Assembly: GCA_044892525.1 (NCBI GenBank)
Contig: CM097887.1
Location: 88,824,397 to 88,888,396 of the forward strand
Length of the DNA stretch: 64,000 nt
Source: Schmidtea polychroa
Taxonomy: Eukaryota
Direction of reading: 5' to 3'
Made by a program: the position numbers and the translations under genes. The notes below the pieces were generated by a model. The model saw only the letters and a program-made list of their open reading frames with translations. It made no database searches and was not told the DNA's origin. Shown here piece after piece: positions 8,516 to 46,300 of the stretch. Each line of letters starts with the position of its first letter. Position 1 is the first letter of the stretch.

Positions 8516-9258
8516 TAAAACTAATTTGAATGTAACTGTTTTATAATATTTATTTGAAATTATATTGACCAAAAAATACAATACCAAATTTGCCTTGTTT
8601 TTTAAATCAGTAGTTGTAAGCAATTTTCTCTGTATTACACTTAAGAATTGGTTTCAGAAATATATGTTTTCTTTTATTATTAACCACTTCCGCTTTTAAG
8701 ATATACTATGTATATCCATTGTTATGTCTTAAATGTGGACAGAATATCATCCAATTTAAGTATTTAAAGTAAGTATGTGTTTAAGTCGTTATGAACAATT
8801 GTTAAACGTAGATTATAAGCAATATTGGATTTAATCTTTATTTACGTTTGTCAACAAATTATCAACAAACATGATTATGAAAATTATTGAATTAAAAAAA
8901 TCTAAGGTGAAAACAAAAGATAAATATAATAAAGATATTTGATATTTTAAATCTTTTTCTTTCGTTGATTAACTGAATGCCGTTAATCTGAGAGTTTGTC
9001 TGGGTCAACTATATTTTAATGCAATTAATGATATGTTTCTGTAGTATTATATTTTCAAATTTATATTTTACATTTAAACTCGCATCAAAAATGCCGATTC
9101 AAGTCTTGAATTTATATTTAATAATTTCATCTTATATATCTAATATCATAATACCACATGTTTGTGATTTAATTTAACTCCATTATTAAATTAATCAAAT
9201 TTAAATTAGTTTATACTAAATTATTTTCATATTGAAAATGAACTCTTGATAAATAAAT

Positions 9259-9261
<3 letters not shown>

Positions 9262-9330
<69 letters not shown>
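9262..9330. repeat. Compound (TA)n(TG)n microsatellite
   Basis: Read directly from sequence. Confidence 0.95.
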
Positions 9331-17400: not shown

Positions 17401-17801
17401 TTAGCTGTAAAGTAAGAAAGATAACGGTACATGACGAAAGGGATAAAGTTAAAGTGGTTCAGCTCTATTACATTGAATTACTTGAATAAAGACTTGTATA
17501 AAAACTTGTAAAAATCTGAGGATCTAAAGACTGAATTATACAGCGATAAAGTAAATGAAACTTTTCTAAGAGGATGGTAAAATAGGAAAATATTCAAGAG
17601 CCGGCTATCTAACAGCAAAAAAGGAAGGCACGGAGGTCCGCGGTCTGTATGATTTTTTACAAGAAGCCCCTATGGGAAAGATTATATTGTAAAATGAGTG
17701 AGGGATAATGTAATATTAAACAATTAATGTTGTTTTAATATTATGAAAATGTCGTAAAAATAGAATTTGAAAAACGTTTTGTCTTACAAGCTATCCGGGC
17801 A

Positions 17802-18510
17802 ATGGAAATCAACAAGATCATAATTGAAAATGTTGGAAAATTCGATGGCAAAAATACAGATGTGGAAGAATGGTTCGACAAACTCGAAATTACTTTGGAA
17901 GCCAAGAATGTGAAAAATGTCATGAACGTAATGCCATTTTTACTTGAAGGTCAATCTTATGCAGTTTTAAAACAGTTAAAGAAAAGCAGCACGACAATGG
18001 ATTTTTGTATGCTGAAGAAGGAATTATTGAAAACCTTCGGTATGAGCGAGCAAGAAGCTTTTACGAAACTTTTACAGAAAAAGTTATTAATGGGTGATAA
18101 CTTGGATGTCCATGTAAATGAATTAAGGTCACTGTTGGAATGTTCAGGTGATCTACTAATCCGATTTTTTGTAAATAGCTTACCAAGTGATTTGTCAAAT
18201 CAACTAAAGATGTCAACAGCGTCAACAATGAATGAGTTAGTCGCTCAAGCAAAGAAAATCGCAAGTCATCAAATTTATGACAATGAAACGGTTGCAGTAG
18301 TAGTACCAAGATCAGATAGTGGAAGACAAGCCAATCGAAAATGCTATATATGCAATAGTGCTAATCATGTGGTAAGATAGTGTCCAGAAAGACGCAATAT
18401 CAGATGTGCAAAATGCGGTATTATGGGACATATTTCAAGGTTTTACAAGTCGGGAAAAGATCATGGGGCTAGACACAATGTGGAGTCGGGTGTGGCCCCA
18501 AAAATTGTGA
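17802..18510 (+). pseudogene. gag: gag of small Gypsy (capsid plus two CCHC-like knuckles, nonsense codon at 18378)
   Basis: KFDGKNTDVEEWFDKLE capsid start; CYICNSANHVVR*C and CAKCGIMGHISR knuckles. G GGA AAA slippery heptamer at 18452-18458 shifts -1 into the protease frame. Confidence 0.75.
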
Positions 18511-18514
18511 ATAT

Positions 18515-21088
18515 GTGAGACTCCTAAAAGTAAATGGTGATGTAAAAGCATGTTTAGTTGATTCGGGCAGCACTACCACTATAGTAAAAGGAAATCCACG
18601 AAAATCTATGACTGCGGTAGCGATGCTTGATGGTTCAATCATATATGCTGAGCGAAGTAAAGTTGATATATGGGTTGGAGATAAGTTATTTAATATTGAT
18701 TGTTTAATACACCCGAAACTAGTATCCAATTATGATGTAATTTAATAAGTGAATGCTATTAATAGGTTTGGTGGAGTACGATTGAATAAAAAAGCCATAT
18801 TCGGTTGTGAAGAAGCATCTTGTCACGTAGCGTGCTCTAGTAGTGGTATGTCAGAAATATTGAAGGAAAATTTCTCTGCGAGATTTGAAAACGAGAAATG
18901 GATTGTCAAATGGGATTGGAAGTCAGAGCCGCCAAAATATCTACCTAATAGAAATTCAAACTTTTATGATAATTTTAGTAAGGATCAGGAGACAATGCGT
19001 ATATTGAATTCTTGGATATCTAACAGCTATCTAGTTGATTACGACGAGAAAACAATGGGCAAACCGATCGGATCAGTACCTATTTATGGTACAATTCAGT
19101 TAAATAGAGCGGAAGTGCGTCCAGTATTTGACTTTAGGGGTATCAATAAATATATTGATGTATATAGTGGAAATGTAGATATCTGTTCTGAAAAATTACG
19201 ATGATGGAGATGTTTAAGTAAAGAATTTGCAATGTTAGATTTATCTGATGCATATATGCAAATACACGTGGATAAAAGCATGTGGCGATATCAATCTTGT
19301 ATGGTTAATGGGAAGAAATATGCGCTTACGAGAATGGGATTTGGATTGAATATCGCACCAACGATAATGACAGAGATTGTGAATAAAGTATTGAACAACA
19401 ATGAATCAATCAAGAATAGTACAAGTTCATACATAGACGATATATTCGTAGATGAATCTAAAGTTAAAGCAAGTAAAGTAAGTGCAGAAATGCGTAAATT
19501 TGGTTTGATATGTAAAGAAGAAGAAAAGGTCAAGGATACTCTCAGTGTAAGAGTATTAGGTATTGATGTATTTCGAAAGAATAATGAACTGGTTTAGAAA
19601 CAATGGTTGCGGCCAGCTTGCTCATATATCAAGAGGCTATCCAGTGGAAATTGGGATGATTCAATAGAAAATCATATCGTTGACAAAGTAAAATGGTTAT
19701 TAGAAAAAGTGAATGAAAGAGATCCATCGTCAGGTATTTGGAGTGTTCCCAGCAATCAGACAGGCATAATTTGGTGCGATGCAAGTTCGATCGCCATTGG
19801 AATTGTATTAGAAATGGAAGGTTCAGTGGTTGAAGATGCGTGTTGGTTGCCGAAACCTGATGGTTCAAGACACATTAATTTGGTGGAAATAGAAGCGATT
19901 GTGAAGGGTATAAATTTATGTATTAAATGGAATCTAAAGTACATCAAAATTAAATCCGATAGTAAATCAGTTGTGTGTTGGGTTAACAGCATATTATCAA
20001 GCGACAGAAAAATACATACAAAAGCAAATTCAGAGTTGTTAATACGACGAAGGCTGGAGCTTTTAAAAGATCTAGCGATTGAGTATGAACTTAAAATGGA
20101 CATTGAGTTTGTATCTACAGAAAATAACAAGGCTGATGTATTAACGAGAGTACCAGCCAACTGGATGATTATTAAAAAAGAAGTCGCAGATCTAGGCAAT
20201 CAAAAAAGCTCGAAAGATGTGTTATTAGAGATTCACAAGACCTGCCATGTAAGGAAAAATCGTATGCGATTCTTAGTATCGGAAGCGGGGCTACTAAATG
20301 TGGATAATGAGATCTCAGAAATAATGGCAAGTTGTAATCAATGCCTATCAATTGACCCAGCGCCAGTAAAGTGGGAGAAAGGTGAACTAAGCTGTGATGA
20401 AAATTGGTGCCATTTAGCAATTGATGTAGCTAAATTTGCTAAAGATAAATATTTAACAATTATTGATTGTGGACCATCGAGATATGCAATTTGAAAGAAA
20501 ATTAAGAATGTAAATGTAGAAGAGATATGTAATGCTTTAAATGAAGTGATATATGAAAGAGGAGCTCAAAGTGAAATATTATTAGATAATTACTTATCTT
20601 TTAGATCTAGAAAATTTCAAGAATTAGCAGATAAATGGAATGTTGAGTTGGTATTTAGAACAGTGAACCGTCCAGGGGGAAACGGGATCATTGAACGCAG
20701 CCATCGGACAATCAAATCGCTAGCAGCTAGGTCCTCAGGAACAATCGCAGAAGCTGTGTACTGGTTCAACAATACGCCAAACAACAATAATATTTGTCCA
20801 TCTAGAGCCATATTTAGATATAATCCAAAGCTGAATCTGCCAAGCTACAATAAAAAAGAGATAATAATCGAAGCAAAATATTCTGCTGGTGACCCAGTAT
20901 GGATAAAACCGAATTTGAATCAAAAATGCACGGAAAGATGGAAAGATGGACATATCATTAAACCATTATCAAATACAAAATTTTTAGTCAGATGTAATGG
21001 ATACGATATGCTGCGACACGTGGGCGATATTAGAAAAAGAGTTGTTAAAGATTCAGATGAATCTGGTGGAGATGTAGGAATAATGTAA
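18515..21088 (+). pseudogene. pol: pol of small Gypsy (PR-RT-RH-IN), one frame broken by several stops
   Basis: ORF pieces 18515-18745, 18749-19204, 19232-19597, 19607-20494 and 20546-21088 are all in the same frame and carry the catalytic motifs in Gypsy order. Confidence 0.85.
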
Positions 21089-22573: not shown

Positions 22574-23576
22574 TGTTGAGGATGCCTAAATAATAATTCA
22601 TGAAGAAATAAATAAAATTACCTGGGGGAAGATCGCCATGACAAACGGGACGATCTATAGAGACTCAGAAAAGAAAACGGAAGTGAAAATAAATCAAAAA
22701 TGAGAAAGAGAAAGGAAATAAAAGTTATCAAACAGAAAAATAAAATCAAGGTCAGTACTAATTAATTAGTACAAAAAGGAAAAGGAATTTTGAAATCAGG
22801 GAAAAAGGAAAACAACAATATCCTTATCTCGACAGCTTGCTGATGATAATAGAATTGATGGGAGAAGGCGGCCAAACAAGAAAGGAAAAAGGGAAAAAAC
22901 AACCTGACAGCGGTCAGAGATAAAAATGGGATAGTCGGGGAAAGCAGGAGAAGGAAAGTGGGAAAACACTTGATTATCTGGAGTGCCACAAGAGAAGCGA
23001 ACTATATAAGGGAAAACTGGTGAACATGAAATTACAACAAAAGAGAGAGACAAGGTGACGCGAAATTGGAAACGCTCTGGAAGACGAATTGAGATACGAT
23101 TTGAGATACGATTTGAGAAAATAATTATTGAAGAAAATCAGACGTCGGACGAAACGTTGTTGGACAAACGATTGTCAAGATAATTGTAAAGGAAATAATA
23201 GAGGAAAATAATTGGAGAAAAGTTGAAGAGAAAAATTAGTTGAATAATAAAACGAAAAGAAGTTATTGATTATTTGAATAAAGTTTGAAAGAAAGTCAAA
23301 GAAAACAACCAGCTCAAAATCCCAGCTTAGAAACCAATCAGTAATTTGTGATCTTTTAATCCGGTGTTATACACAAGTGCTATTCCTCACCGAGTGTTGC
23401 AATAAGCACTGTATAGTCACCCAACAGAGTGTTGAATTTATCGTCAGTGTCAAGTGAAAGTTTATTTGTGATTATCAATAAAGATTTCTATTGTCAAGTG
23501 TTATTTGTGAATTATATAAAGACACGCTTGGAGTCAGAGTAACATTAAATTTTGTCACCAACTCAATAACCCAACA
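22574..23576 (+). repeat. 5' LTR of large Gypsy element
   Basis: Matches 36401-37403; one substitution seen by eye (G22912 vs T36739). TATA-like TATATAA at 23003-23009; AATAAA at 23477-23482. Confidence 0.95.
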
Positions 23577-23581
23577 TATTT

Positions 23582-23599
23582 TGGTGAGCCCGACGTGAT
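23582..23599 (+). promoter_or_regulatory. Primer binding site complementary to tRNA-Trp 3' end
   Basis: TGGTGAGCCCGACGTGAT, 17/18 identical to TGGTGACCCCGACGTGAT (complement of the vertebrate tRNA-Trp 3' end); 5 nt after the LTR. Confidence 0.85.
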
Positions 23600-23798
23600 C
23601 AAAAGTTGGTGAAGAGATTGTGAAAAAGAAAATTGGAAAAATAAAGTGTGTAAATTGAAATTATTAGAGTGATTTTGGAAAGGTAAATTGTTTATTGTAA
23701 TAATAATTTGAGATTTAGATTTTGTGAAATTTGAAAAGAAATAATTTATTAAAGTGAACCGATATTATTTACGAAGCCAGAGTAAAAAGGAAGCTACA

Positions 23799-26597
23799 AT
23801 GAGCAGTGAAGATTTACCAGTTTCAGTTATTAAAGAAAATAATGATTTTGCCAGTTGTCAAAGATTGCCAGTAGAGCAATATGGAGGAGATCCAATTATT
23901 TTTGTTGATTTTATGAGCGATTACTATATGTATGCAACGGCTTATGGATGGTCTCAAGCAATAATGATTCAAAGATTACCCTTATATCTTAAAGGAGCTG
24001 CTAGAGAGGTTTGGCAACAAATCGACAGGAAAACAATCGGCAATGATTGGGCCAAATTAAAAGATGCATTGGCTGCTAAACTTATTGGAGGAGATATAAA
24101 GAGGTTAATGCGTCAGAAATTTTATAATAGAGTTCAAAATCCAAATGAAACAGTGAGCGAATATGCATATCATTTATCGACCCTTGCCAGCAAATCCTTT
24201 GAAGAAGATTCGAAACAACCAGGATTAGCCCAACAGATGCAGGAACTGATTCAAGATCAATTTTTGTCCGGAGTAAATAAAGAAATAAAAACGGCATTAT
24301 GTTTTGTAGAGTATGACAATTTCGACGAACTAGTTAAAAAAGCAATGAAAATCGAATTGAATCTAAAGAGCTCTAAAAATAAATCTGAGGTATTTGCAAT
24401 AATTCCAGTACAAAGAGAGAGATCAGTAACCTCAACCCAAGACAATTGGGAATCAGGAAATAGATTTCAACGATTAAAGAGCCCATCACCAAAATGGAGA
24501 AACGATAATAATATGAACAGAGCAAGCCAAAATTCACCAGGCACTGAGAGAGCTCAAGTTATTCAGTGTGATATTTGTAAGAAAATTGGCCATTATACAA
24601 ATCAATGTTGGTTTAAAAATAATTCTGAAAGAGTACCCAGGAGATTGAGTCCAGATTGGCAAAGAGATAATGGAGGAACGAATTTTCGGAGAGCAATTCC
24701 TAATGTGAAGTCAAATTTTAATGAAGTACAATGTTATCGCTGTGGTAGAAAAGGACATGTTTCTAGAAATTGTTTTTCAAGATCAAGATCACCATCAATG
24801 TCACCATCACCACAAAGAGATAATGTGAATTTAAATGGACAAATTCAATGTCATTTATGCAGAAATTACGGACATATTGCAAGATCTTGTCCCAGGAATT
24901 CCGATAAATTTCAAAAACCGATTTTGAAACGAACAATTAGATTTCAGGATGAAAACCAATCAAAGAATAATGTTGCTTATGTTCAAAAAGATAAATTTAG
25001 AGAAAAAATTGAGAACGATGTCAAACAATTGAATCAAAAATTGAATAAATTGATGGCGAAATTTGAATCAGATGATGAAACAGATTCTCATATGATGACA
25101 AGACGAAAATTGAAGACGGATCAATCAAAACTTGATGATATTACAAGAAACAGAGTTAAAACGGATATGCAAAGTGAAAAGAGTACAATACTTATTGCTA
25201 AGGTCAGGAAATTAGTAACAGAACCTGATGCGAATTCTCAGAAATTGACAGAAGTATTGATGAAGCTAACGGAAATACCGTTGAGTTTAACCAAAATTAA
25301 AACTGTTATTAAACTTTGTACTGAATGTTTTGCAGCAAGTGTGGAAAAGCGAGATGTATTTGAAAAGTATATGAAAGAATTTGGCCAAACTTTACGAAAA
25401 TTCAAATGGTTAGACCCGATATTTATTAAAACAAATACATTAAACGACACCAAATCCGAGTATCAAGTTGAAGCATACGGAAAAATACGCGAGTTGAAAA
25501 GAGAAATAATGTACAAATGTGAAGTTTGGGCAGTAGAACTTGGATTTATGGGCCGAGTGTTGGAAGACGACGAATTTTTGATAGATTGTGGATTAATCCC
25601 CGGCGTTGAAAATGAGATACAAATAGTGAGCATGATTACCAATGAAAAACCAGTCAAATATGATGTCAATAAAATTAAATTTGAATTAAATGAAGCATTG
25701 ATCAAGGGAGATACAGGTGATATTATTGATAAATTGAATAATATTTTGAATTTAGAATTTGAAGTGGAAGATAAATTGAAAATTTTAGATTGTGTCAGAC
25801 CCTATGTAAATTATGATAATGAATATAGTGAAATGATAAAAAAGCTTATTCATAAATTTGGACAAGAATTTAGAGAAAAAGGAGTTTATAATGAGCCATT
25901 TGTGATAATGTTAAAAATAAATGACCAAGAAGTGGAATGTACCAGCGAGCATTGGTGTACGAAATTGAGTACAATACGACGGAGAGCAGCAGAAATTATG
26001 GGCAGTGATGGAATAATTGTATTGAAATACAAAGGTTTTGAGTTAGATGATGATGAGTACTTATTTGATTGTGGCTGTGTACCACGAAAATTTGATGAAA
26101 ATGGATCTTTGGCGAATCAGGAAACATTTATTAATGAGTTAGTTGCGATGAAACAATTTGAATTAAAGGAGGTAGAAGAAAGCTTTAAAATGGAATTACC
26201 AAACTGGAAAAATGAGATAATGAGTAATGATGATGAGATGCACGATGAACAAGAAATGAAAAGAGATGAAATAGAAAATGAAACTGTAGAGATTATTATT
26301 AAAAATGAGATGAAGACTGAAAAAGATGAAATAGAAAATGAAGCGGAACAGATTATTGTTGAAAATGAAATGAGAACTGAAGTTCAAAATGAGGCATATA
26401 TGACCAAAATGACGATTGATAATGATATTAAAGAAAAACAATGCAGAAATTTGTATGAAATAAGATGTAAAATAATACAGAAATTTCAAGAGGAAAAAGA
26501 TCAGAAAGACTCAAAGGAAACTGAGAAAATTGTACGTGCTCTAGTAAACGAATTAATAGAGAGAATTAATAGAGAGAATAGAGAGAATGCAAGTTGA
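23799..26597 (+). CDS. gag: Gag (capsid plus three CCHC zinc knuckles) with a long C-terminal extension holding two ubiquitin-like domains
   Basis: First ATG at 23799. Capsid motifs (LPLYLKGAAREVW, RVQNPNETVSEY); knuckles CDICKKIGHYTNQC, CYRCGRKGHVSRNC, CHLCRNYGHIARSC; Ubl-like segments at about 25419-25628 and 25899-26150. Confidence 0.85.
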   Translation: MSSEDLPVSVIKENNDFASCQRLPVEQYGGDPIIFVDFMSDYYMYATAYGWSQAIMIQRLPLYLKGAAREVWQQIDRKTIGNDWAKLKDALAAKLIGGDIKRLMRQKFYNRVQNPNETVSEYAYHLSTLASKSFEEDSKQPGLAQQMQELIQDQFLSGVNKEIKTALCFVEYDNFDELVKKAMKIELNLKSSKNKSEVFAIIPVQRERSVTSTQDNWESGNRFQRLKSPSPKWRNDNNMNRASQNSPGTERAQVIQCDICKKIGHYTNQCWFKNNSERVPRRLSPDWQRDNGGTNFRRAIPNVKSNFNEVQCYRCGRKGHVSRNCFSRSRSPSMSPSPQRDNVNLNGQIQCHLCRNYGHIARSCPRNSDKFQKPILKRTIRFQDENQSKNNVAYVQKDKFREKIENDVKQLNQKLNKLMAKFESDDETDSHMMTRRKLKTDQSKLDDITRNRVKTDMQSEKSTILIAKVRKLVTEPDANSQKLTEVLMKLTEIPLSLTKIKTVIKLCTECFAASVEKRDVFEKYMKEFGQTLRKFKWLDPIFIKTNTLNDTKSEYQVEAYGKIRELKREIMYKCEVWAVELGFMGRVLEDDEFLIDCGLIPGVENEIQIVSMITNEKPVKYDVNKIKFELNEALIKGDTGDIIDKLNNILNLEFEVEDKLKILDCVRPYVNYDNEYSEMIKKLIHKFGQEFREKGVYNEPFVIMLKINDQEVECTSEHWCTKLSTIRRRAAEIMGSDGIIVLKYKGFELDDDEYLFDCGCVPRKFDENGSLANQETFINELVAMKQFELKEVEESFKMELPNWKNEIMSNDDEMHDEQEMKRDEIENETVEIIIKNEMKTEKDEIENEAEQIIVENEMRTEVQNEAYMTKMTIDNDIKEKQCRNLYEIRCKIIQKFQEEKDQKDSKETEKIVRALVNELIERINRENRENAS

Positions 26598-29025
26598 GAA
26601 ATATGTGAGGAAAATTGCAAAGAAAATTAAAAAGAGATTTTGTGTAGTGTTAAAACAAGCAAAAGAAAGTATGGAATTTTGCGATGATAATGTGATAACT
26701 GAGATGAGGACAAGGAAAATAGATAGAGATATGGTATTAACAATTATGAGTTATATTTTGTTAGAAATCGGAACCTATGATTGCTCAGAAATGGAAAAAC
26801 ATGAGGAAATAATTAAAATGGCGAGTAAAGTTTTACATAAACATGTTGGCAAATGGATAAAAGAGAATGGAGGTTGGGAAAAGCTGATTAAACAAAAAAT
26901 AAAACCAGTTGTGGAATTGAGAGAAAATTATGAAGGGGTCTTGAAACGAAACACCATGAAATTTCCATTTTTAATGTTTATGATTATGATACTATGTGCA
27001 ATTATAACTCAAACGACGTCTTTAATCGCTTACGACTGTTCTCAAACAAAAATGGGAAAGGTATATTCGATGGTAGATATGACAGAATGTCCAGATGCAC
27101 ATCCACTGAGTCTAACAGTGGAAAAGGATGTAAAATACTATGTATATCAAGAGTCTGGATTTAGACATGCCACGGTAAGAGAGTGTATTGTGAAGAGAAC
27201 AAGTTTTGTATTCTATTGTGGCAAATGGAGTCACACATCATTAATTAAAATGTATGCAATACCAAGGCCAGTTGATGTAAATCCAGAAAATTGCATGGCT
27301 GCATTCCAGACCGGAGAATTGAAAATAAGTCCCGAAATTAAATTGAAGGCTAAATTAAATCATGCAATACGAGAAACGATTATTGAAAAAGGGGTGATAA
27401 AGGCCAATGGTGATTGTGAAGGCGAACCATATAAGATGAATGGGCAAATTATTGACAAAGTTGTTGTGATGGAGGAATATTTAACAGAATTGAGAGAATT
27501 TAAAGGAGCTTTTGACGATGATACAGGCAAATTACAAACCCATCCATTTTGTAATATGAAACAGACCAGTTGTCAAACAGGAGAATCGATTTTGGTATAT
27601 GAAGTAAAGAAAAATTTGTGTAACTTGATACATTTGAAATCAATGAGTTTCAGTGAAATGAGTGGCGAACAATTGAGAAATAGACCGGAAAGTCTGAATG
27701 TGGAAGCAAAGCCGGATATGACAGTTAAAATTACGCGATTGAGAAAGAGAAAAACTCCAGTAGTTCTGATGTCAACTTTATTGGACGATGGGATGAGATT
27801 CATACGAAAACGAGTAGTGGATAAGTGCGGCCAAACGGTGTATGAGACGAATTATAAAGGGATTTATGTGTCCAAGAAAAGAGTCGAGGAAGCTCAAATT
27901 AAAATACATAGTACAGATATTAAATTGACAAATTATTTCAATAACAAAATAGATTATCTATTCCACTACAGCCAAAGCATTGTGGAAAATATTTATCGAG
28001 AAATGATATTAAACGATTGTAAATTAAACAAAGAAATATTACGAAATAGAATAGCGATGGCGGTCACAAATCCGAATTTAGTAGCACCTATGTTAATATC
28101 GGAAAACGGTGTATTTGCAAGGATATTTGGTGAAGCGTTGTATAGCTACAAATGCAATGAAATTTCCGTACAAATTACAAAACACGAACAATGCACAAAT
28201 GAATTACAAGTGAGTGTCAATGGTAAACTCAGATTTATGGAACCAATAACTCGGATATTGTTAGAGGAAGACGTAAAACCAAAGGTTTTAAAATGCAACA
28301 GATTACTCGCACCATTATATTGATTAACGTCAGATTCATGGATATCGTTACCAGATCACAAAGGAGTAAAAACTCCAGAAAAGCTAGAATTAACAAAGCT
28401 TGAGTATTTAATAAATTTCACATCATTGGATAAATTAGCACAAACCGGATTGTATTCTCAAGAAGATGTTGAGGAAGCTAGAATGAATTTGTTATTTCCA
28501 TCGAAAAAGGAACGAGTAATAACTGAAATGATTGATACTATACTACCAGGAGGTGAAGGAAAAGTAAACTATGATTATCTATTAACACCAGATCATTATA
28601 AAAAGGCAACGTATAATACGATGAAAAAGATATGGGGAAAATTTATGTTTTTAGGACAAGCGTGTGCGGGATTGATTGGAATTTATGTTATGATAGTGAT
28701 GACAAAGGTAATAATATCTCAAATATTAACTACACACCAATTATATGTTATATCTGGTTGGTCATGGAAATTGATTATTGGATGCATACCGTTCTTGGCC
28801 AGATTTCTGATTACCAAGCATCAATACAAAGAAATGGGGAAAGTAAAATCACGACTAACTAAAAGAAATATTGATTCAAGTTCGAGCAATGGAAGTGGAT
28901 ATGGGGATGATGATAATGATAAACTAAGAGTACCCCCTATGTATTATTATAAAAATAATAAAACAAAAATAAATGATATAAAGGAAAAATCTAAATCTAT
29001 GAGTTTATTACATACAGTACCATAG
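26587..29025 (+). CDS. env: ORF2: N-terminal Bcl-2-like domain, then a signal sequence and chuvirus-like class III fusion glycoprotein; one in-frame TGA at 28321-28323
   Basis: BH2-like WIKENGGWEKL; hydrophobic MKFPFLMFMIMILCAIITQTTS; LIAYDC..YSMVD..ECP, YCGKWSH, CNRLLAPLY, LAQTGLYS, and C-terminal membrane region WGKFMFLGQACAGLIG...GWSWKLI. The frame stays open after the TGA. Confidence 0.8.
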
Positions 29026-29180
29026 GCAAGTGGAACAGACACTTTCAGTCGATTATGTATTCCAAAAACCTTTATTCCAACAGCACCAATATATCCAGTG
29101 GAAAAACTAAAGGAAATGAGGCCAATTGAGAATATTGAATTAACAAATGAGCAAATTATACCGACAAGTGCAGAAATTGA

Positions 29181-29760
29181 AAGGAGAAATATGCTGGGAT
29201 TACCAGGAAATTATGCGCTAATGACAGTCGGAAACAGAGCAGACAACCAAGAATATGGGTACAAGTAAATAAACATAGAGTTGAAGCATTATTAGACTCA
29301 GGTTCGAGTAATACGATATTATCAGACGAAGTGTTGAATTCAGATGAGAAAGCACAAATGAGAAGTACAGAAGAAGTGGTACGATCAATGACAAAATCCA
29401 AACTAAATATTATTGGGCAAATTAGAGTCAAGTTCAATATTGGAAATCAGGAAATTGCTCATGATGTTCTAATAATTCAAAATTGTCCAGTGGAATGCTT
29501 AGTGGGTATGGATGTTTTAGCACAGCTAGAAGGAGTTTGTCTTGATTTGAAAACGGGAAATTTGATTATGGGAGAAACGGGGAAAGCCATTCATGAAACA
29601 GGCGACGTGTTTCTAAACCAAACATTAAGAGTTCCACCTCAAAGTGAAGTTATTTGTTATGTGAATACAATGGGAGTTCCAGATGATGAATTTATATTTC
29701 AACCAAGTGAAACATTAATCAAAAAGTATGATATCCCCATGTACGACGAACTAGTAAGTC
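29181..29760 (+). CDS. pro: Retropepsin-type aspartic protease region (no ATG upstream of the active site)
   Basis: Frame opens at 29181; PRIWVQVNKHRVEALLDSGSSNTILS and CLVGMDVL motifs. The reading frame shifts to the pol frame near 29760. Confidence 0.85.
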
Positions 29761-32718
29761 CAAGACCAATTAATTCCTGTTTATATTACCAACAATAATG
29801 ATAAAGAAATAGCATTAAGACCAAAAACGAAATTGGGAAAGTTGACAAAAATCTTAAAAATGGACAATAAAAGATTACCAAAAAATATAAAAATATACAA
29901 AGAACCTCAAGTAAACAGTAAAGATTTGACCCAAGAGAAAATACAAAAATTTATGAAATTATTGAAAAAATATCAAGACGTCTTTGCAAAACATGAATAT
30001 GATCTAGGAGTTACTCATGTAATTGAGCACGAAATTCCATTAATGGATGAAACTCTAATCAAACTACGACCATACAGAATTCCTTATGCACATCAAGAGG
30101 AAAGTGATAGACAAATAAAGGCGATGAAGGATTTCAATATCATCAGAGACAGTTTTTCACCATTTTCTTCATCTATTGTTGTTGTTAAGAAAAAAGACGG
30201 TGAAATAAGATTTTGTATCGATTATCGAAAATTGAACCAAGTTACAAGAAAGGATACATATCCAATCCCAGTTCCTCAGGAAATGTTCGACAAAATGGGA
30301 GAAGCTCAATATTTTACTGTTATTGATTTAAATAAAGGGTATAATCAATTCAAAGTTAAAGAATCAGATAAAGGAAAAACAGCATTCTCAGATGGAAAAG
30401 GTTTGTATGAATTTAATGTTTTACCATTTGGTTTGAAAGGTGCACCAGCAACATTTCAAAGAGGAATGAATTTTGTACTGAGAGATATCCCACATGCTTT
30501 AGTGTACATAGATGATATTATAATATTTTCAAGTGATTTTGAGGAGCATATGAGAGATGTGGAGACAGTATTTAAACGGCTTAGAGAAGCAAGTCTCAAA
30601 ATCAAACCATCAAAATGTGAATGGGGTAAGTCAGAGGTAGTATATGTTGGACATATTATCTCACGGAGGGGTTTACAACCAAATCCAGATAATGTTAAGA
30701 AAATCCAAGAATATCCTATTCCAAAAAATGTTGATGACGTCAGACAGTTTCTCGGGTTAGCAAGTTATTATAGAAAATTTATTAGAAACTTTGCACATAT
30801 TGCTCAACCATTAACAATGTTATTAAAGAAAACTCTTAAATTTACGTGGAATAAAGCTCAACAAGATGCTTTCGAAATTCTCAAACAAAAACTTATAATT
30901 AATCCAATATTGCGATGCCCAGATTTTACAAAGATGTTCATATTAATGACAGATGCAAGTGGTTTTGCATTAGGGGCAGTGTTGGGGCAAAAGGTAGAAG
31001 GAGAAAAAGATCATGTCATTGCATATGCTAGCCGATCACTGAAGCCCCATGAGAAAAATTATTCAACAATTGAAAAAGAAACTTTAGCTTTGGTATATGG
31101 GATAACAACATTTCGACAATATCTAGTGGGTCCGAAATTTATTGTTTATACAGATCATAATCCGTTACAATGGTTAATGAAACATCGAGATGCAGCAAGC
31201 AAATTGATAAGGTGGTCTATAGCCTTACAAGAATATGATTTTGAAATAAAATACAGAACAGGAAAATCAAACGCTAACGCAGATGCATTGTCAAGGATCT
31301 CAAATGAGGAAATTAGTGTTGACCAGGAAGAAATAAGTTTGAGAGATACAGTATTCGCAGTAATCAAAGCAGTAAACAATATGTCAGAGCTGCAACGAGA
31401 TCAGGAAATGGATGATGAACTAAAACAAATAATCAAACATACAGTGATAATGAAAAAGGACAGTGAATTAAAACAATTAATTGAGGAAAAGCATAAATAT
31501 GTAATCCACAAAGGTATATTAAAGTATATTAAAGGTGATGAATTATTAATAGCTGTCCCAACTAAGCATCGAAATACGTTATTGTTACAATATCATGATG
31601 GAGCATTGGGTGGACATTTATCAGCAAGAAAAACAATGTCACGATTAAAACTAAAGTATTTTTGGAATACAATGGACCAACATGTAAAGTATTGGTGTAA
31701 TACGTGCAAAATTTGTCTAACTCGAAAGAATACAGGAAAGAAAATAAAAGTCCCACTAAAACCAATGCCAATACCAGCCGCGCCAATGGAATTTTCAGCA
31801 ATGGATATTATCGGGCCCTTACCCGAAACTACAAATGGAAATAAATATATTATAGTATTTTGTGATTATTTAACAAAATGGCCAGAGGCGTACGCAATAC
31901 CAAATCAAAAAGCGGAAACAGTTGCTCAAATATTTGTCGAAAAGATTATATTCAGATATGGTGCTCCAAAGAAATTGTTAACAGATCAAGGAACAAATTT
32001 TCAAAGTGATTTATTTAAATCCATTACCGAATTATTTGGTATTTATAAATTAAATACATCACCATATCACCCGCAAACAGACAGGCTAGTAGAAAGATTT
32101 AATGGTACTTTAATCAATATGATCTCATCGTATGTAAATCGGAAACAAAAAGATTGGGACTTATTTATCAAACCATGTCTGTTTGCTTATCGAAATGCAG
32201 TTAACGAGAGTACGGGTGAAACACCTTTTTATTTAATGTATTTGAGACGAAACAATATGCCAATTGACCTGAAATTTCAACCCCCAACGTCTCAATACAT
32301 GGACGTTCCAAATTATAAAGTAATAATGCAGGAACGATTACAATCTGCATGGACTCGTGCGGGGTTAAAAATTAAGTATCGTCAAGAACAATATAAAGAA
32401 AACTACGACAAAAAGGCGCATGAGCACGGAATAAAAATCGGAGATTCGGTATATTTAAACAGGCCGGAGCCAGTAAAGGGCCTATCAATAAAATTACAAA
32501 GACCATTCAAGGGTCCATACACAGTATGTGATGTTACAGCAACTAATTTGAAGTTACGTCCAATGAATAACAAAAGAGCAGAAACAATTATAGTTCATGC
32601 TAATCGATGTAAGAAAGTATCCGAAATAGAGTATCAATTACGATCAAAACAAAAGAAACTTAATGATGAAAAAATTATTCAAAAAAAATTTCAAAAAAAC
32701 CCTACGCCATTGGGATAT
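29761..32718 (+). CDS. pol: Pol: reverse transcriptase, RNase H, integrase
   Basis: RFCIDYRKLN, LPFGLKGAPATFQR, YIDD (30505-30516), TDASG, YSTIEKE, TDHNPL, HDGALGGH..CNTC, MDIIGP, TDQG, VERFN, GPY motif. The frame continues into the next feature. Confidence 0.95.
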
Positions 32719-33900
32719 ATGAACAGAGTTTTATTTATAACTACAGTCTTAATAAATGTCATAGCAAATGCAAGTGGAATAACAATGAATCTACCATATG
32801 CAGTAGAAAAAGTACCCTTATTGGATAAAATTTATATATATTCAACATTTACTAGTATTGTGTGGACATATCACTGTGAAATATCAGAACAAATAGAAGT
32901 TAGTAATTTATTGAACCCTTTCGAACCATTTGTTACGTTGAATTATGAGAAAAGCATATATGTAGCTCGTCGATTGACAGCAAATTACAAATATCCTTGG
33001 ACCATTAAACAATATACGCATCAAACAAATACTACTCAAAATATTTATAACCTTATACAAATTAACATTTGGACAAATGAATGGAGAAATTTAGCTGAAA
33101 TTGAACCGATGATAAATGAAATTCACGTATATTGAAAAGCGGAAGAGCAACAGAAAGTCAGAATTGTTTTTCAAAACATTACGATTGAAACATTAAATAA
33201 AAGAAAATCTTTTGTTAAATACAAAAATTTACAAGAAAATCTCACTTACAGTCTTTCAATACATTATTACGAGAAACTCATTCATGACAATGGGACGTAT
33301 ATGAATAATCAATGGATAGAAGTTCAGAGTCAATATGAAGCAGTACACTTGGTTAACGAAACTAATCGAGTTCAAATAAAAATTGAGAACAATGAAATAA
33401 TTGTGTTACGCCAACCAGGCCTCAGACAAAGGGTAAATATTTTTGTAAATAATAAAATTCAGGTGGTGTTAGACGAATACCAACAAAGAGCAAAATTGAG
33501 TACCTTGAACTCAGTATCTAATCCGAAACCAAGAAATTTCGTGATCAAAATTCAATATTGCAAGCGAAAAGCAAACTCAGATCAATGGCAAGTCACTTTC
33601 ATTGAAAATAGACATATTCATCTTCCTCATACTCAACCCATTGGAGAAATAATAAGTGATCATAATCTAACATTAACCGTAAAACCCTCATGGTCAAAAA
33701 ACGAAAGCTTTTCACTAAACTGTAAAGAAAAATCATCTCATAACAATTGTGTCGAATTGTTATTCATATGTATCATTGTGGCAATACCAAGCGGTATCCT
33801 ACTCATCTACCTTGTTCTAATCTTGAGAAGTAATGACAATGACAATTCTATCTGCGACTATCAATATTCTGAGTCGCAGCAGTTAGAGACATGGGTGTAG
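32719..33900 (+). CDS. Predicted type I membrane glycoprotein, in frame with integrase; in-frame TGA at 33133-33135
   Basis: Signal-like MNRVLFITTVLINVIANA; at least 7 N-x-S/T sequons; FN3-like stretch IHVY*K...KYKNLQENLTYSLSI; TM LLFICIIVAIPSGILLIYLVLIL; short tail. The frame is open on both sides of the TGA. Confidence 0.65.
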
Positions 33901-34068
33901 TAAGATATGATTTCATTGCATGCTATTGATATCGTAAAGTATTTCTTTCTTTCATACCTTTTATAATTACATAAAAATGACTAATAGTGATCTTGTATTG
34001 TGATTATTCGTGATCTAAAATTAAATTATCATTCCTGTAATTTGATTGGTTAAACGATTGCACTACTG

Positions 34069-35574
34069 ATGGGAGAGTTGGGATATAAGAGTATGGTTGT
34101 TAAAAAGAAGAAAACGAAGAAAAACAAAGAATATCAAATGGAGAAAATCAGCAGACCAGCGAAAATATATTCACAGTATCTCAGAGAAAAAAGAAGCCGA
34201 ATAGAGAAGACATATATAATCGAAGAAAATCTGAGAATCCCAAATTGGGCAAGAACAGGCAATGAGAAAATGAGGATATGTCTAATGGAGATCGAATGGA
34301 GATCAAGAATGAAAATAGCCGAATTATTAGTGAGGAAAAGTGATGAGAATTGGGAGATCCACGTATTTAAAGGAATAGTGGAAATCATTAACAATGAAGG
34401 AACCATAACCGGAACAATGCCAAACAATTCATCATGGAAAATTGATAAAGAAACATGGCATAAACATATGCGAGCGGCGAATGGAACCGCGTGGTTAGTA
34501 TTAGAATGCCGCAGTAAAATGCCCACAAGTAACGCGGTAGAAAGAATCATCTCGATGGAAGAAGAAAATACCTTGCTCCCGATTACTGAAGAAATGTTGA
34601 AACACCGAAAGTCATTCCTGAGAAAATATTTAACCACTGAAGAAATCCAAAAAAATATAATATTCATGGATGCCGAATATGGAGTAAGTGAGGACAATAG
34701 AATGATCCCACTAGCGGTATGCCTCATCGAATATACCGGGAAAATAATCTATAATGCTTTGATAACTCCGAGAGAAAAAATAAAAAACTATGTTACACAG
34801 GTTCACGGCATTACTGAGAAAATGTCTAGGAACCAAGAAGACCAATATGAGAGCCAAAGGAAAGTTCAGGAACTAACAGCACGAAAAATATTGGTAGGAC
34901 ATGATCTACAAAATGAATTAAGGTATAGTGGAGTTAACCCAAATGATTTATGGGAAATTCGGGATCTAGCAGCAGCCCAAGCTCTAACGAAAAGGAAAAT
35001 CACAAAGAATGGGCAATGGTACAAATTGTCGATAATTGCTCAAGAAATATGCCAAATATCAATGCAAAAGGGAACGCACTCGGCAAGAGAAGATACGGAT
35101 GCAGTGAGACGAGTTTATCTGGCATTGGAAAGCGATTGGGAAGATGATATAAAAGTGCCAACACGGATATCTCACTCCCTACAAGAGTATAGAACTCGCC
35201 AACTAATGATGAATCAAAAAAGGGAATATAGTAAACTCAAAATCCCGAAAAAACCACAAGAGGAAAAAGCTGTGGAAATGCAAGAGATGGAAATAAATCT
35301 TCATTCCATCGAATCAATGAAAACCATCAAGAGATATAAAGTAACGATAACAATGGAAGAGGAATTAAAAATGGCGGGGAAAATGGAGCTTCGTATAAAG
35401 AGAATGGCAAAACGAAGACTCAAAGATATGGAAACTCAAACGGTAACTACGGAAACTTCGGTGGGAAATACAATTATCATCAACGGAGAAGAATGGAAGC
35501 TCAAAAAAATCTTAGCCACTTATCAAAGAGAAGATGAAAAGATAAAAATTACAAAGTTACCCGACAGAAGATGA
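34069..35574 (+). CDS. DEDDh 3'-5' exonuclease (REX4/ISG20-like) with an unknown N-terminal domain
   Basis: Exo I IFMDAEY (D at 34669), VTQVHGIT, Exo II ILVGHDLQNEL, IRDLA, Exo III QKGTHSAREDTDAVRRVY; Lys-rich N-terminus KKKKTKKNK. Intact 501-codon ORF. Confidence 0.85.
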   Translation: MGELGYKSMVVKKKKTKKNKEYQMEKISRPAKIYSQYLREKRSRIEKTYIIEENLRIPNWARTGNEKMRICLMEIEWRSRMKIAELLVRKSDENWEIHVFKGIVEIINNEGTITGTMPNNSSWKIDKETWHKHMRAANGTAWLVLECRSKMPTSNAVERIISMEEENTLLPITEEMLKHRKSFLRKYLTTEEIQKNIIFMDAEYGVSEDNRMIPLAVCLIEYTGKIIYNALITPREKIKNYVTQVHGITEKMSRNQEDQYESQRKVQELTARKILVGHDLQNELRYSGVNPNDLWEIRDLAAAQALTKRKITKNGQWYKLSIIAQEICQISMQKGTHSAREDTDAVRRVYLALESDWEDDIKVPTRISHSLQEYRTRQLMMNQKREYSKLKIPKKPQEEKAVEMQEMEINLHSIESMKTIKRYKVTITMEEELKMAGKMELRIKRMAKRRLKDMETQTVTTETSVGNTIIINGEEWKLKKILATYQREDEKIKITKLPDRR

Positions 35575-36386
35575 ATAATTGTAATAAATAAATAAAATTT
35601 ATAATTCGTAATTACTTTATTTTTTTTGTACCATAAAAATCTTTTATCAAATAAATAATAGAATAATAAAATAGCAAAGGCAAAAAAAAAAAAATTAATT
35701 AAATCATAAATATAAGTTGAAAATTTAATAATATAATATAGTAGAGTGTAATAAAAATTTCAATACTAATACAATTGTAGTAAGAACCCTACGGGAGCTA
35801 CTCAAATAAATAAAAATGAATAAATAAATATATATAATTCGGAATTAATAAAAAGGCCTTGAAGTTTCCAGATCACGAACTTCGGGATCTGAAGACTTCA
35901 TGGCAAAATTACCTAGCCGCCTGCAGCATGGCGTAACCAGCGTGCAAGGTAATTTGGAAAAGACAAGATAAATAATAAACCCTATATAGAGAGGAAGAGG
36001 CATTATTACATAATTATTATTTCAATTAATTATTATTATTGTCATTATTGATTAATTATTATTGTTATCANNNNNNNNNNNNNNNNNNNNNNNNNNNNNN
36101 NNNNNNNNNNNNNNNNNNNNNNNNNNNNNNNNNNNNNNNNNNNNNNNNNNNNNNNNNNNNNNNNNNNNNNNNNNNNNNNNNNNNNNNNNNNNNNNNNNNN
36201 NNNNNNNNNNNNATAGAGGATATTGATATGTATTAAAGTAACAGGGGGATTAATGTAATGCGCAATAAAATCAAACAACTATGGGAAGGGATAATTATTC
36301 TATTTTGGGGATTTTAAAATGAAAGAGGTAGCTAACAAAATAAATAGATTTCAAATCTTAATTTATTTCGAGGACGAAATTTTTTT

Positions 36387-36398
36387 AAAGGGGGGAGA
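36387..36398 (+). promoter_or_regulatory. Polypurine tract
   Basis: AAAGGGGGGAGA, 2 nt before the 3' LTR. Confidence 0.85.
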
Positions 36399-36400
36399 TA

Positions 36401-37403
36401 TGTTGAGGATGCCTAAATAATAATTCATGAAGAAATAAATAAAATTACCTGGGGGAAGATCGCCATGACAAACGGGACGATCTATAGAGACTCAGAAAAG
36501 AAAACGGAAGTGAAAATAAATCAAAAATGAGAAAGAGAAAGGAAATAAAAGTTATCAAACAGAAAAATAAAATCAAGGTCAGTACTAATTAATTAGTACA
36601 AAAAGGAAAAGGAATTTTGAAATCAGGGAAAAAGGAAAACAACAATATCCTTATCTCGACAGCTTGCTGATGATAATAGAATTGATGGGAGAAGGCGGCC
36701 AAACAAGAAAGGAAAAAGGGAAAAAACAACCTGACAGCTGTCAGAGATAAAAATGGGATAGTCGGGGAAAGCAGGAGAAGGAAAGTGGGAAAACACTTGA
36801 TTATCTGGAGTGCCACAAGAGAAGCGAACTATATAAGGGAAAACTGGTGAACATGAAATTACAACAAAAGAGAGAGACAAGGTGACGCGAAATTGGAAAC
36901 GCTCTGGAAGACGAATTGAGATACGATTTGAGATACGATTTGAGAAAATAATTATTGAAGAAAATCAGACGTCGGACGAAACGTTGTTGGACAAACGATT
37001 GTCAAGATAATTGTAAAGGAAATAATAGAGGAAAATAATTGGAGAAAAGTTGAAGAGAAAAATTAGTTGAATAATAAAACGAAAAGAAGTTATTGATTAT
37101 TTGAATAAAGTTTGAAAGAAAGTCAAAGAAAACAACCAGCTCAAAATCCCAGCTTAGAAACCAATCAGTAATTTGTGATCTTTTAATCCGGTGTTATACA
37201 CAAGTGCTATTCCTCACCGAGTGTTGCAATAAGCACTGTATAGTCACCCAACAGAGTGTTGAATTTATCGTCAGTGTCAAGTGAAAGTTTATTTGTGATT
37301 ATCAATAAAGATTTCTATTGTCAAGTGTTATTTGTGAATTATATAAAGACACGCTTGGAGTCAGAGTAACATTAAATTTTGTCACCAACTCAATAACCCA
37401 ACA
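36401..37403 (+). repeat. 3' LTR of large Gypsy element
   Basis: Copy of 22574-23576, followed by the ATTT TSD. Confidence 0.95.
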
Positions 37404-43354: not shown

Positions 43355-46300
43355 GGTGGCCCAAAAAATTGAAAGTTAAAAACTAACAACTCTCACCCTT
43401 CCAAGTTGTTCCAATTGCTATAAAAATAATTAGTGCAAAATATTTCTGCAATTTGACAATATTTAAAGGTGGCCCACTGGTGATGAAGTTTTGACATGGT
43501 GTTTCTTTTGCCGGTAATTCAGGGCGAGTTATTGGTTTGTTATATAGCAGTGACTGAGAGAGTATGGATGATTAACCTATTTAAGTGTTACTTATTTATT
43601 GGTATTTTATTGAATTTATTAGACATTCTTTGCTAATTCTCTTCTGTTTATGTTTATATTTGTTTTTCATTTTTGAGACAAAAAGTCAGCTATTACTCAC
43701 CAGTCGAGATGTAATTATGCAATCTTTGTTCTCTTCATGTATTAATAGTCAGTATTTTACTTTGCTGAATTACATGCAAAAACACATCGTTGTTGAATGC
43801 ATTTTACAATGTTACATGTACTCTTGTACTATACAGCAAATTTAAAATTTTTCAGTTGTTCATTCAATTATGCCTAGTGTTTTGCTTAACCTAATCGTCT
43901 CCACTCTCCATGTTATTGTGTTTCAGATTTAACAGAATGGAAACAAGATCTAATGATAATGTTTACTTGATTAAATCATATGTTCCTGAAATTCTTGGTG
44001 CAAAGCTGCCATCGTATTATCAGACATTTGGGTACTTTCTACACCTACATAAAGTAGAAAAAATGACTCTTCGCGAAGCCAGTAAACTGACAATCAACGT
44101 GATAATGGAGTTCTGGAAAAAAGCAAGCATTCCAACAAGAGCAGAACAGCACTGCATTCAGAAGCTTGAATCAGTCTTTTATGAATGGAAGGGTCTCCAA
44201 AAACACAAGTCGAGGTCTGGTGAAACTCACAAAAAACAGGAGCATGAATTTGTTTCTCATCTTGAAGATTTGTTCGACATAGCCCATCAGGATGCACTAA
44301 CTATCATTAGCAACCCAGAAGACAGGGCATTCCTGTTACGCCAGAGAGAAAAAGGGCGTCCAGGATCCATTGGTGTCCGGGATAAAGTTACTGAACGTAA
44401 AGCTAGAGCAGCTGGTGAACGCAAACAAGCTGAAGCAAGGCGGCGGCAAAGGTCAGTAGATGAAATGAATATCAGTGCTTGTTTGACAACTCTCGAATCA
44501 TCATCTGGTGAAGACAGTGACCATGACCAAGAGCAGATTGTCTTGTGTGATGATGAATATAAACCTGTTGCATCCTCATCAACAGATCCTGCTGACTGTA
44601 TCACAAAGCCAGTGCCAAAGAAAGCTAAGACTGATGTATTGACTCCTGGGGTAATGACAGCTCTGGACAGAACACAGACATCCTCCAGAAATGCTGTTTA
44701 TGTGTTGTGTGAAACAGCATCCAGCCTTGGTCACAATGTTGATTCCCTCAACATCAGCAGGAACTCAATCCACCGAGCCAGGTGTAAAGCTAGAACAATT
44801 GCAGCATCACAGCTGAAATCAGAATTTCTATCTGTAAACCATCTGACTGTCCACTGGGATGGAAAGTTATTGGAAGATTTGACAACTAGAGAACACGTCG
44901 ACAGGTTACCAATTCTCATCTCAAGTGTTGGTTGTGAACAGCTGCTTGCAGTTCCAAAACTGTCATCTGGAACTGGTGAATCCCAAGCTACTGCCGTGGT
45001 CAACGAGATAAAGCAACGGGCATCGAAAAGCAGGTTGTGACTTTGTGTTTTGACACAACAAGTTCAAACACTGGTGATAAGCAAGGTGCTTGTGTCTTAA
45101 TTCAACAGATGTTGGCCAAAGATCTCCTATACTTGGCCTGTCGTCATCACATCATGGAACTTATTGTCGGTGCAGCATTTGACCAAATGCTACGAGGTTC
45201 ATCAAGCCCTGACATATCAATATTCAAAAGATTCAAGGAGCACTGGAAATTCATAGATCGTGACAACTACCAGCCGGCAGAAACGGATCCATTCATCGAC
45301 AATCTCATTGCTAATAGTCGAAATGAATTATTGGAATTTGCTCGCATGCAACTTGAAGTGCAGCAGCCACGAGATGATTACCGGGAGTTCCTGGAACTGT
45401 CTATGATTTACCTTGGCCAGGCTCCTTCCAGGGGGATTCACTTTCAGTCTCCAGGTGCAATGCATCGATCAAGGTGGTTGGCTAAAGTGCTGTACAGTAT
45501 CAAGATGTGGCTTTTCAGAGCACAATTCAAGATGACACAGAGTGAGCTGAAGGGAATCACTGCTGTTGCTGCATTTGGTGTGCTTGTCTATCTCAGAGTA
45601 TGGATAACAGCACCTCTGGCAATAAATGCACCATTGAATGATTTCCTGTTGATGAGACAGCTCCTTGAATACCCCGATGTAAACATTTCATCTGTAACCA
45701 GCAAAAAGCTGGGACTGCATCTGTGGTATATTTTAGAAGAGCTGGTAACACTCGCTCTGTTTGACTCCAGAGTTCCAGCTGAAACCAAGAAGCTGATGCT
45801 TGCAGCCATGGAGAATGCTGCACCTGAGCATCCACCTAAACGTCCCAGAGTGGAAACATCAGCCTTCACAAACAGCAAGGGTCTCGAACAGTTCTGCACA
45901 GCCAATTCAATGACCATGTTTCGTCTTCTGCAGTTACAGACGTCATTTATGTCAAAAGATCCATCAGAATGGGATGAGGATGAAACATACCCATGTGCAC
46001 TGAGAACTGTTAAAGGATTGGCTGTTGTGAATGACAGAGCTGAGAGAGGGGTAGCCCTCATTCAGGACTACAATAAAAAGCTAACCAAGGATGAGGAACA
46101 GCTTCAATTCATGTTGCATGTCGTTAGCGAACATCGCCGGCTGTTTCCAGACTGCAGCAAATTCGGTCTCATGATGGCCATGTCATCTAAGCCAACGACA
46201 CCTTAACTATCAAACTCGGACTGATCTTAATTAGTAGTTACGACTAAAAACTGTGTTCAATCACCATGTTTTCAATTTCCATGTTCCATGCACTGTTGTT

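Follow-up and report, generated by a model that had tools for sequence, protein, structure and literature searches.

A selected DEDDh-type exonuclease gene with a predicted cupin-like domain at the 3' end of an env-carrying Ty3/gypsy element of Schmidtea polychroa

A DEDD nuclease encoded by a 3' ORF of an LTR element is already known from bdelloid rotifers, in which the Juno and Vesta LTR retrotransposons and the Terminons carry a DEDDy-type ORF3 (PMC5408684, available text). The giant Burro/GYPSM1 gypsy elements of planarians (PMC6431247) and the flatworm GAG-ENV-POL errantiviruses with a gB-type env (PMC13524379) have, in the accessible parts of both sources, the same gene order as the element described here. 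The accessible Burro description names no exonuclease, and neither 'DEDD' nor 'RNase T' is mentioned in the accessible text on errantiviruses. Burro RNA is repressed by PIWI in a planarian (PMC8532177, in excerpt). As for viral nucleases, the consulted sections report that coronavirus nsp14 is an active DEEDh enzyme, in which a change of Glu to Asp is tolerated (PMC7654266), and that arenavirus ExoN suppresses innate signalling (PMC7968707).

The window analysed here, a stretch of 64,000 nucleotides of the S. polychroa genome, contains a Ty3/gypsy LTR retrotransposon (22574-37403, 14.8 kb) with a compact Burro-like GAG-ENV-POL layout and the following parts:

22574..23576, + strand: 5' LTR, TG...CA, 1003 nt, with a CCAAT box at 23334
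23582..23599, + strand: primer-binding site starting with TGG, which we take to be a match to tRNA-Trp
23745..26597, + strand: gag frame with Retrotrans_gag, CCHC knuckles and a weak ubiquitin-like domain (Pfam)
26560..29025, + strand: weak Bcl-2-like domain together with a gB-like env of the chuvirus type (PF24664), with interruptions in this copy
29181..33135, + strand: Ty3/gypsy-type protease, RT and RNase H plus integrase (Pfam), interrupted in this copy
33136..33900, + strand: C-terminal membrane-anchored segment of the polyprotein, without a Pfam family
36387..36400, + strand: polypurine tract
36401..37403, + strand: 3' LTR, followed by the ATTT target-site duplication

The two LTRs differ by 1 mismatch in 1003 nt and the ATTT target duplication is present, so the insertion is young. 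Gag, the ubiquitin-like and Bcl-2-like domains and env lie in frame ahead of protease-RT-RNase H-integrase, and a single polyprotein of more than 3100 aa is open at two other loci (L054 and L060); in this copy the polyprotein region has 5 breaks over about 10 kb. Burro likewise has gag-ubiquitin-Bcl-2-env-pol in a single polyprotein. However, it exceeds 30 kb and has MATH, BIR and ankyrin cargo, whereas the window element is half that size and gave no Pfam match to MATH, BIR, ankyrin or dUTPase. In the intervals 17739-21088 and 43895-46206 we also noted the decayed gag/RNase H/integrase remains of another element, and a pair of overlapping GC-rich long ORFs for which no convincing Pfam family was found.

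Between the polyprotein and the 3' LTR lies an accessory ORF of 501 codons (34069-35574, + strand). As the original prediction stated, it is open throughout, stands apart from the polyprotein, precedes the 3' LTR and contains MDAEY, GHDLQNE and THSARED. It is divided as follows:

34069..34137, + strand: 23-codon in-frame extension with a Lys-rich stretch, likely an untranslated leader
34138..35574, + strand: accessory gene from the conserved start, 478 aa
34138..34527, + strand: predicted cupin-type double-stranded beta-helix, without conserved metal ligands
34528..34647, + strand: conserved linker ending in an SF-x-R motif
34648..35151, + strand: DEDDh (DEEDh) exonuclease domain, with D201 (34669), E203 (34675), E283 (34915), H337 (35077) and D342 (35092)
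35152..35571, + strand: variable tail of low confidence, in which lie a basic patch (35398-35424) and, at the end, a short beta hairpin

The assignment of the C-terminal half to DEDDh nucleases of the REX4/ISG20 kind held in profile, sequence and structure comparisons alike. Pfam RNase_T (PF00929) was matched at 25 bits, its cut-off being 24 (E 3e-5), and by 16 of 20 and 32 of 51 alignment members. Among PDB sequences, the single sequence matched ISG20L2 (3e-7), ISG20 (4e-6) and also SDN1, and a 20-row profile brought the first two to 1.7e-19 and 2e-16 and added PAN2. Foldseek superposed 173 columns of the domain on ISG20 with an rmsd of 3.0 A (TM 0.83, taken for the target), i.e. an RNase H-like DnaQ fold. 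Exo I (D-x-E) corresponds to D201 and E203, and Exo III (H-x4-D) to H337 and D342. The Exo II acidic residue is Glu (E283) in place of the canonical Asp. Among the best 150 of 1204 proteins, Exo II is Glu in 25, Asp in 17 and another residue in 10 of the 52 rows of the element-type clade, and the Exo III His is present in 42 of these 52; outside the clade, Exo II is Asp in 90 of 93 rows. As clade members carry both Glu and Asp, and nsp14 is active as a DEEDh enzyme, two-metal 3'-5' nuclease activity with Glu at Exo II is plausible.

With rotifer ORF3 the accessory gene shares its position as a separate 3' ORF of a Ty3/gypsy element, a DEDD exonuclease domain and a motif changed to DEED. However, ORF3 is RNase D-like, of the DEDDy type, and replaces env, whereas the accessory gene is of the DEDDh ISG20/REX4 type, is fused to a predicted cupin and coexists with env; in place of the Tyr general base of RNase D-like DEDDy enzymes, it has His at Exo III. 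The available text of PMC5408684 reports no departure from neutrality for ORF3, in contrast to the clear selection described below, and the capture of the cupin-DEDDh gene was likely independent of the rotifer one. ISG20, ISG20L2 and REXO4 have the same domain fold and motif spacing, but the accessory gene differs from them in its Exo II Glu, N-terminal cupin, lack of introns and placement in another clade. It also resembles the viral ExoN proteins as a DEDDh nuclease of a mobile element, with motif II Glu as in nsp14. In contrast to nsp14 and arenavirus NP, no zinc fingers were seen in it, and neither protein was among the matches listed in sequence or fold searches; the analogy is functional only. 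What would be new is the DEDDh type with its predicted cupin fusion: neither this fusion nor paired active and dead forms were found in the main text of the open-access literature.

The region ahead of the nuclease had been described as an unrecognised domain of about 190 aa. A separate N-terminal domain is indeed predicted, but its size has to be revised to a folded part of about 130 aa and a 40-aa linker. In an AlphaFold2 model of the whole protein this domain and the nuclease are confident and the tail is of low confidence; modelled alone, the domain reached pLDDT 89.8 and pTM 0.82. Its best fold match was the cupin 2i45 (Z 9.7, rmsd 3.0, 93 aligned), ALKBH6 tied with small cupins (Z 9.2, rmsd 6.0, 133 aligned), and among the Foldseek matches listed all were cupin-type or vaccinia C16. 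These Z values are modest and indicate a fold, not a function; they point to a jelly-roll barrel of the cupin/double-stranded beta-helix kind. By sequence, Pfam gave no family and no cupin match for this part in 51 rows, and the ESM Atlas gave no usable match. Over 50 rows (numbered from 34138) the conserved residues are H75 (45/50), E123 (40/50), P35, N36 and Y11; H75 is the sole conserved His, and ligands of the H-x-H/D...H pattern are not conserved, and we rejected an active AlkB/2OG-Fe(II) enzyme or a metal cupin. The orchid Ty3/gypsy elements that captured AlkB also have an extra ORF with a double-stranded beta-helix fold (PMC9289625, in part); the iron-binding His-x-Asp...His is, in contrast, not conserved in the accessory protein. 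The cupin part would have a non-catalytic role in binding or as a scaffold.

A search of the genome, which is AT-rich and has four chromosomes, returned at least 95 matches to the accessory gene (86 scored, of 1452 candidates). They fall into four sequence families: A, which includes the window copy, B (61-63% identical to A over the whole protein), and C and D (33-37%). In six copies for which upstream DNA was obtained, the gene stands behind the membrane segment, in elements of the same kind; element genes also lie upstream at 13 of another 14 places, and the fetched stretch at L094 has none. The gene has been kept open across all four families, so that neither of the two refuting outcomes named in the original prediction (no RNase T/DEDDh profile match, or an ORF absent or decayed in other copies) came about.

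In the window copy, the original prediction had pointed out that the ORF shows no stop or frameshift, unlike env, pro-pol and the second glycoprotein. This contrast carries no weight alone: a 1.4-kb gene escapes 5 breaks over about 10 kb with a chance of 0.49, so its intactness here proves nothing, and function has to be argued from other copies. The dN/dS values over cupin, linker and nuclease are 0.07-0.29 in 9 of 10 pairs, the tenth being saturated, and pooled values are 0.12 for family C (11 copies) and 0.22 for family D (7 copies); these are simple Nei-Gojobori estimates from non-independent pairs of copies picked for being open. They indicate purifying selection, and no positive selection was seen. 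In a count over 73 loci, which includes broken copies and some overlapping loci, the five catalytic residues are kept in 68/71, 69/71, 71/72, 68/69 and 69/69 aligned copies, i.e. 96-100% against a median column conservation of 70%. The accessory gene is thus intact and selected, and belongs to a Ty3/gypsy element that carries env. If a host gene had recently been copied into the element as a neutral passenger, this would account for the many broken copies in the genome and for the openness of the window copy, which is expected by chance. However, dN/dS lies far below 1 at saturated synonymous distance, the promoter motif described below is conserved, and the proteins form a deep element clade apart from the host gene. 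This explanation appears largely refuted by dN/dS and the tree, and we consider it very improbable. Three other candidates were set aside: a 204-aa antisense frame (34134-34748), and the env-exo (L087) and pol-exo (L144) fusions, which resemble deletion products; longer fused forms of 980-2795 aa were found in 0 of 5140 candidates, which is weak evidence.

The start of the protein was placed at Met24 (34138), which all 24 of the open copies examined have in common. In-frame ATGs upstream of it occur, among these 24, just in the two from family A, 3 of 11 family-A copies have a stop inside the N-terminal extension, and in an alignment of eight outside homologues similarity is lost across it. 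The 23-codon extension is therefore likely a leader rather than coding, somewhat less surely so in family A. The Lys-rich stretch at residues 12-20, proposed earlier as a nuclear localization signal, lies upstream of the conserved start and abuts a 21-nt deletion; we rejected it as such a signal and take it for probable leader, since all open copies start at Met24 and the upstream ATGs are confined to two family-A copies. A better candidate for such a signal may be the basic patch at residues 444-452, aligned with RKRK in the other families.

In the DNA around the gene four features stand out:

33916..33922, + strand: conserved TTGCATG intergenic motif, within 500 nt in 23/24 copies
34043..34051, + strand: inverted CCAAT box, presumably an NF-Y consensus, in 24/24 open copies of the four families
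34084..34089, + strand: TATA-like box, TATAAG here and TATAAAAG in L017 and L029
35856..35955, + strand: twin RNA hairpin in the 3' untranslated region, GC-rich, z -4.65

The CCAAT box lies 93-271 nt ahead of the ATG in all 24 copies, with synonymous sites saturated between the four families. Its chance per family is 0.02-0.04, for copies that share descent and a motif picked by eye; strict consensus sites number three in the 12.8-kb interior and one in the LTR. In families A and B a TATA box is followed 30 nt downstream by TTGAC. In the window copy alone, of 11 in family A, the start predicted 30 nt past the TATA falls in the 21-nt deletion. On these sequence signals, an internal CCAAT/TATA promoter is the probable source of an accessory transcript, though with only moderate confidence. 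NF-YB is reported to act in the germ stem cells of planarians (PMC4909293). Just before the ATG, families C and D, like several other lineages, have an acceptor-like AG after a T-rich run, which fits 5' UTR introns or splicing from the LTR leader. We regard leader splicing as a less likely source, and trans-splicing as an improbable one. Loci with AG before the ATG (L032, L039, L079, L099, L101, L143 and L139) also show donor-like sites, with a possible micro-exon upstream.

The accessory gene has a history of its own within the element. Between families the accessory proteins are 41-43% identical, against 83-86% for RT. Compared with the element at L011, the window element has a dS of 0.08 in RT and 0.025 in env, and of 1.9 in the accessory gene; DNA identity is 96-100% before 33500, 50-77% across the gene and 91-95% at 35725-35920. 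The breakpoints, in this comparison with family B, lie near 33500-33800, inside the membrane segment, and near 35400-35700, and family C contains mosaics within the gene. The accessory gene has thus been swapped by recombination between near-identical backbones. The membrane-anchored segment after the integrase (33136-33900 and the end of 29758-33135) diverges at the same rate as the exonuclease gene.

The gene is also retained where the replication enzymes are missing: it is open in four copies without protease, RT and integrase (L079, L083, L095 and L096). All four are non-autonomous copies with pol deleted; in L083 and L095, gag, env and the membrane segment form one 2263-aa frame. On the other hand, catalysis has been lost repeatedly. 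The genome has 87 matches to a catalytically dead form, which stands directly after pol in three RT lineages whose RT is 51-53% identical to that of the window element; three more dead types have no pol in the fetched stretch. The abundance of dead versions indicates that the wider clade does not need catalysis.

These observations bear on the proposal that the enzyme trims or proofreads reverse-transcription intermediates, as nsp14 does for large RNA genomes. The DEEDh signature is the same as in nsp14, the element is large (14.8 kb), and ISG20 cuts single-stranded DNA too. However, the gene lies outside the polyprotein, is kept by pol-deleted copies, is swapped independently of RT and is dead in sister lineages of similar size. 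In addition, it was not seen in a longer, related MATH/RING gypsy family, in 3/3 copies scanned from env onward. The trimming role raised by the original prediction is therefore disfavoured, and we hold it to be quite improbable. The MATH/RING family (L149-L160 and L058; 91 matches) has a RING-MATH (TRAF-like) ORF and 3-4 ORFs of unknown nature 3' of pol.

A representative protein search found 1204 proteins at E 0.001. In a tree of the domains of sufficient length from the best 150 of these, 52 of 145 separate from the REX4-like proteins, and many of the 52 carry the cupin part. A second tree, of 76 chosen rows (39 intact-looking, 16 dead, 20 REX4-like and 1 host exon), separated, at an SH-aLRT of 100, the 55 element-type rows from the 21 REX4-like rows including the host exon, and required at least two changes of the dead label; it was a quick search with long branches among the dead rows and without REXO1 and PAN2. 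The comparison with host REXO4 that had been called for thus sets the element proteins apart as one clade, and we rejected orthology. In the host, a REXO4-like gene of two exons lies at a locus of its own.

Metagenomes yielded seven loci (L099-L105). L099 and L100 are one element, our only genomic context outside the S. polychroa genome, in which pol is followed by two cupin-exonuclease genes in tandem, one catalytically dead (L099, 7268-8740) and one with intact D-E-D-H-D (9043-10371). Its RT is 55% identical, a second protease and ankyrins follow the integrase, and a third ORF has a weak ubiquitin match. L101-L103 are short contigs with the accessory gene alone, L104 resembles cellular REX4, and a scan of IMG/VR gave 16 pattern matches with 0 relatives.

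The relationship to cellular enzymes raises another explanation, in which the protein would manipulate host RNA, namely rRNA processing or mRNA turnover, inside the nucleus or the nucleolus, mimicking or competing with REXO4/ISG20L2, beside the Bcl-2-like and ubiquitin-like cargo. The top sequence and structure matches are ISG20L2 and ISG20, the basic patch of the tail is common to the families, and a decoy role suits the dead forms. However, the element proteins share only 25-31% identity with a REX4 query, of which the exons of the host gene share 51-55%, and form a separate clade; we rate this explanation as unlikely.

We favour the suggestion, to which we give slightly less than an even chance, that the accessory protein is a separately expressed, RNA-end-binding nuclease directed against the host's RNA defence. 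Made from its own transcript, it would grip and trim RNA 3' ends with the cupin barrel and the ISG20/REX4-type DEDDh domain. Such trimming might weaken RNA-based defence, its targets being small RNAs or further RNA of that defence. Since sister lineages have kept dead forms, binding of RNA or of a partner would probably be the core function, to which cutting was added and then retained in the lineage of the window element. Retention without pol, fast divergence under purifying selection, swapping and repeated loss of catalysis with the fold kept make the gene resemble a viral accessory factor in conflict with its host more than an enzyme of replication, and the structural relatives SDN1 and ISG20 are further points for our suggestion; on the other hand, fast divergence and recombination would equally fit any dispensable 3' gene. 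Two more points against it are the abundance of dead versions and the related MATH/RING family, which is abundant and in 3/3 copies scanned from env onward showed no such gene. Counter-silencing is the leading reading by analogy to arenavirus ExoN, SDN1 and the PIWI control of Burro. The 3' ends of piRNAs are 2'-O-methylated, which hinders such nucleases. We are doubtful of the broader version, in which a widespread cupin-DEEDh family of animal gypsy retroviruses, whose working and dead forms can pair, serves as a piRNA/siRNA silencing suppressor and interchangeable counter-defence cassette.

To our knowledge, few counter-defence proteins have been described from animal retrotransposons. If our suggestion is true, LTR elements would have captured a DEDD nuclease a second time, independently of the rotifer DEDDy case, and an animal retrotransposon would be seen to be built as complex retroviruses are, with an accessory transcript of its own. 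The protein is compact and foldable and offers a clear catalytic knock-out, active and dead variants of it occur in nature, and a planarian-type host is routinely open to RNAi and small-RNA sequencing.

An activity against host defence has to be weighed against a role on the element's own RNA, namely processing of its 3' end, poly(A) length or hairpin region, or control of export or packaging. Among the nearest folds are those of PAN2 and ISG20L2, enzymes that trim RNA at defined ends, and 3'-end processing was proposed for the rotifer DEDDy ORFs by Rodriguez et al. (PMC5408684, available text). Moreover, the twin hairpin lies 280 nt downstream of the gene and is 87-100% conserved in the copies of families A and B. 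However, these two families share it despite genes that are 63% identical, families C and D yielded no such hairpin, and the dead lineages would be unable to trim. We consider this role rather unlikely, if slightly less so than the manipulation of host RNA.

The twin hairpin had no match in Rfam. In the corresponding 3' region, family C has a long hairpin of another kind. A mir-753-like hairpin, which fits a planarian host, was noted at L068:3360-3420 (59 bits, below the gathering score of 62), and similar hairpins occur in L133 and L082.
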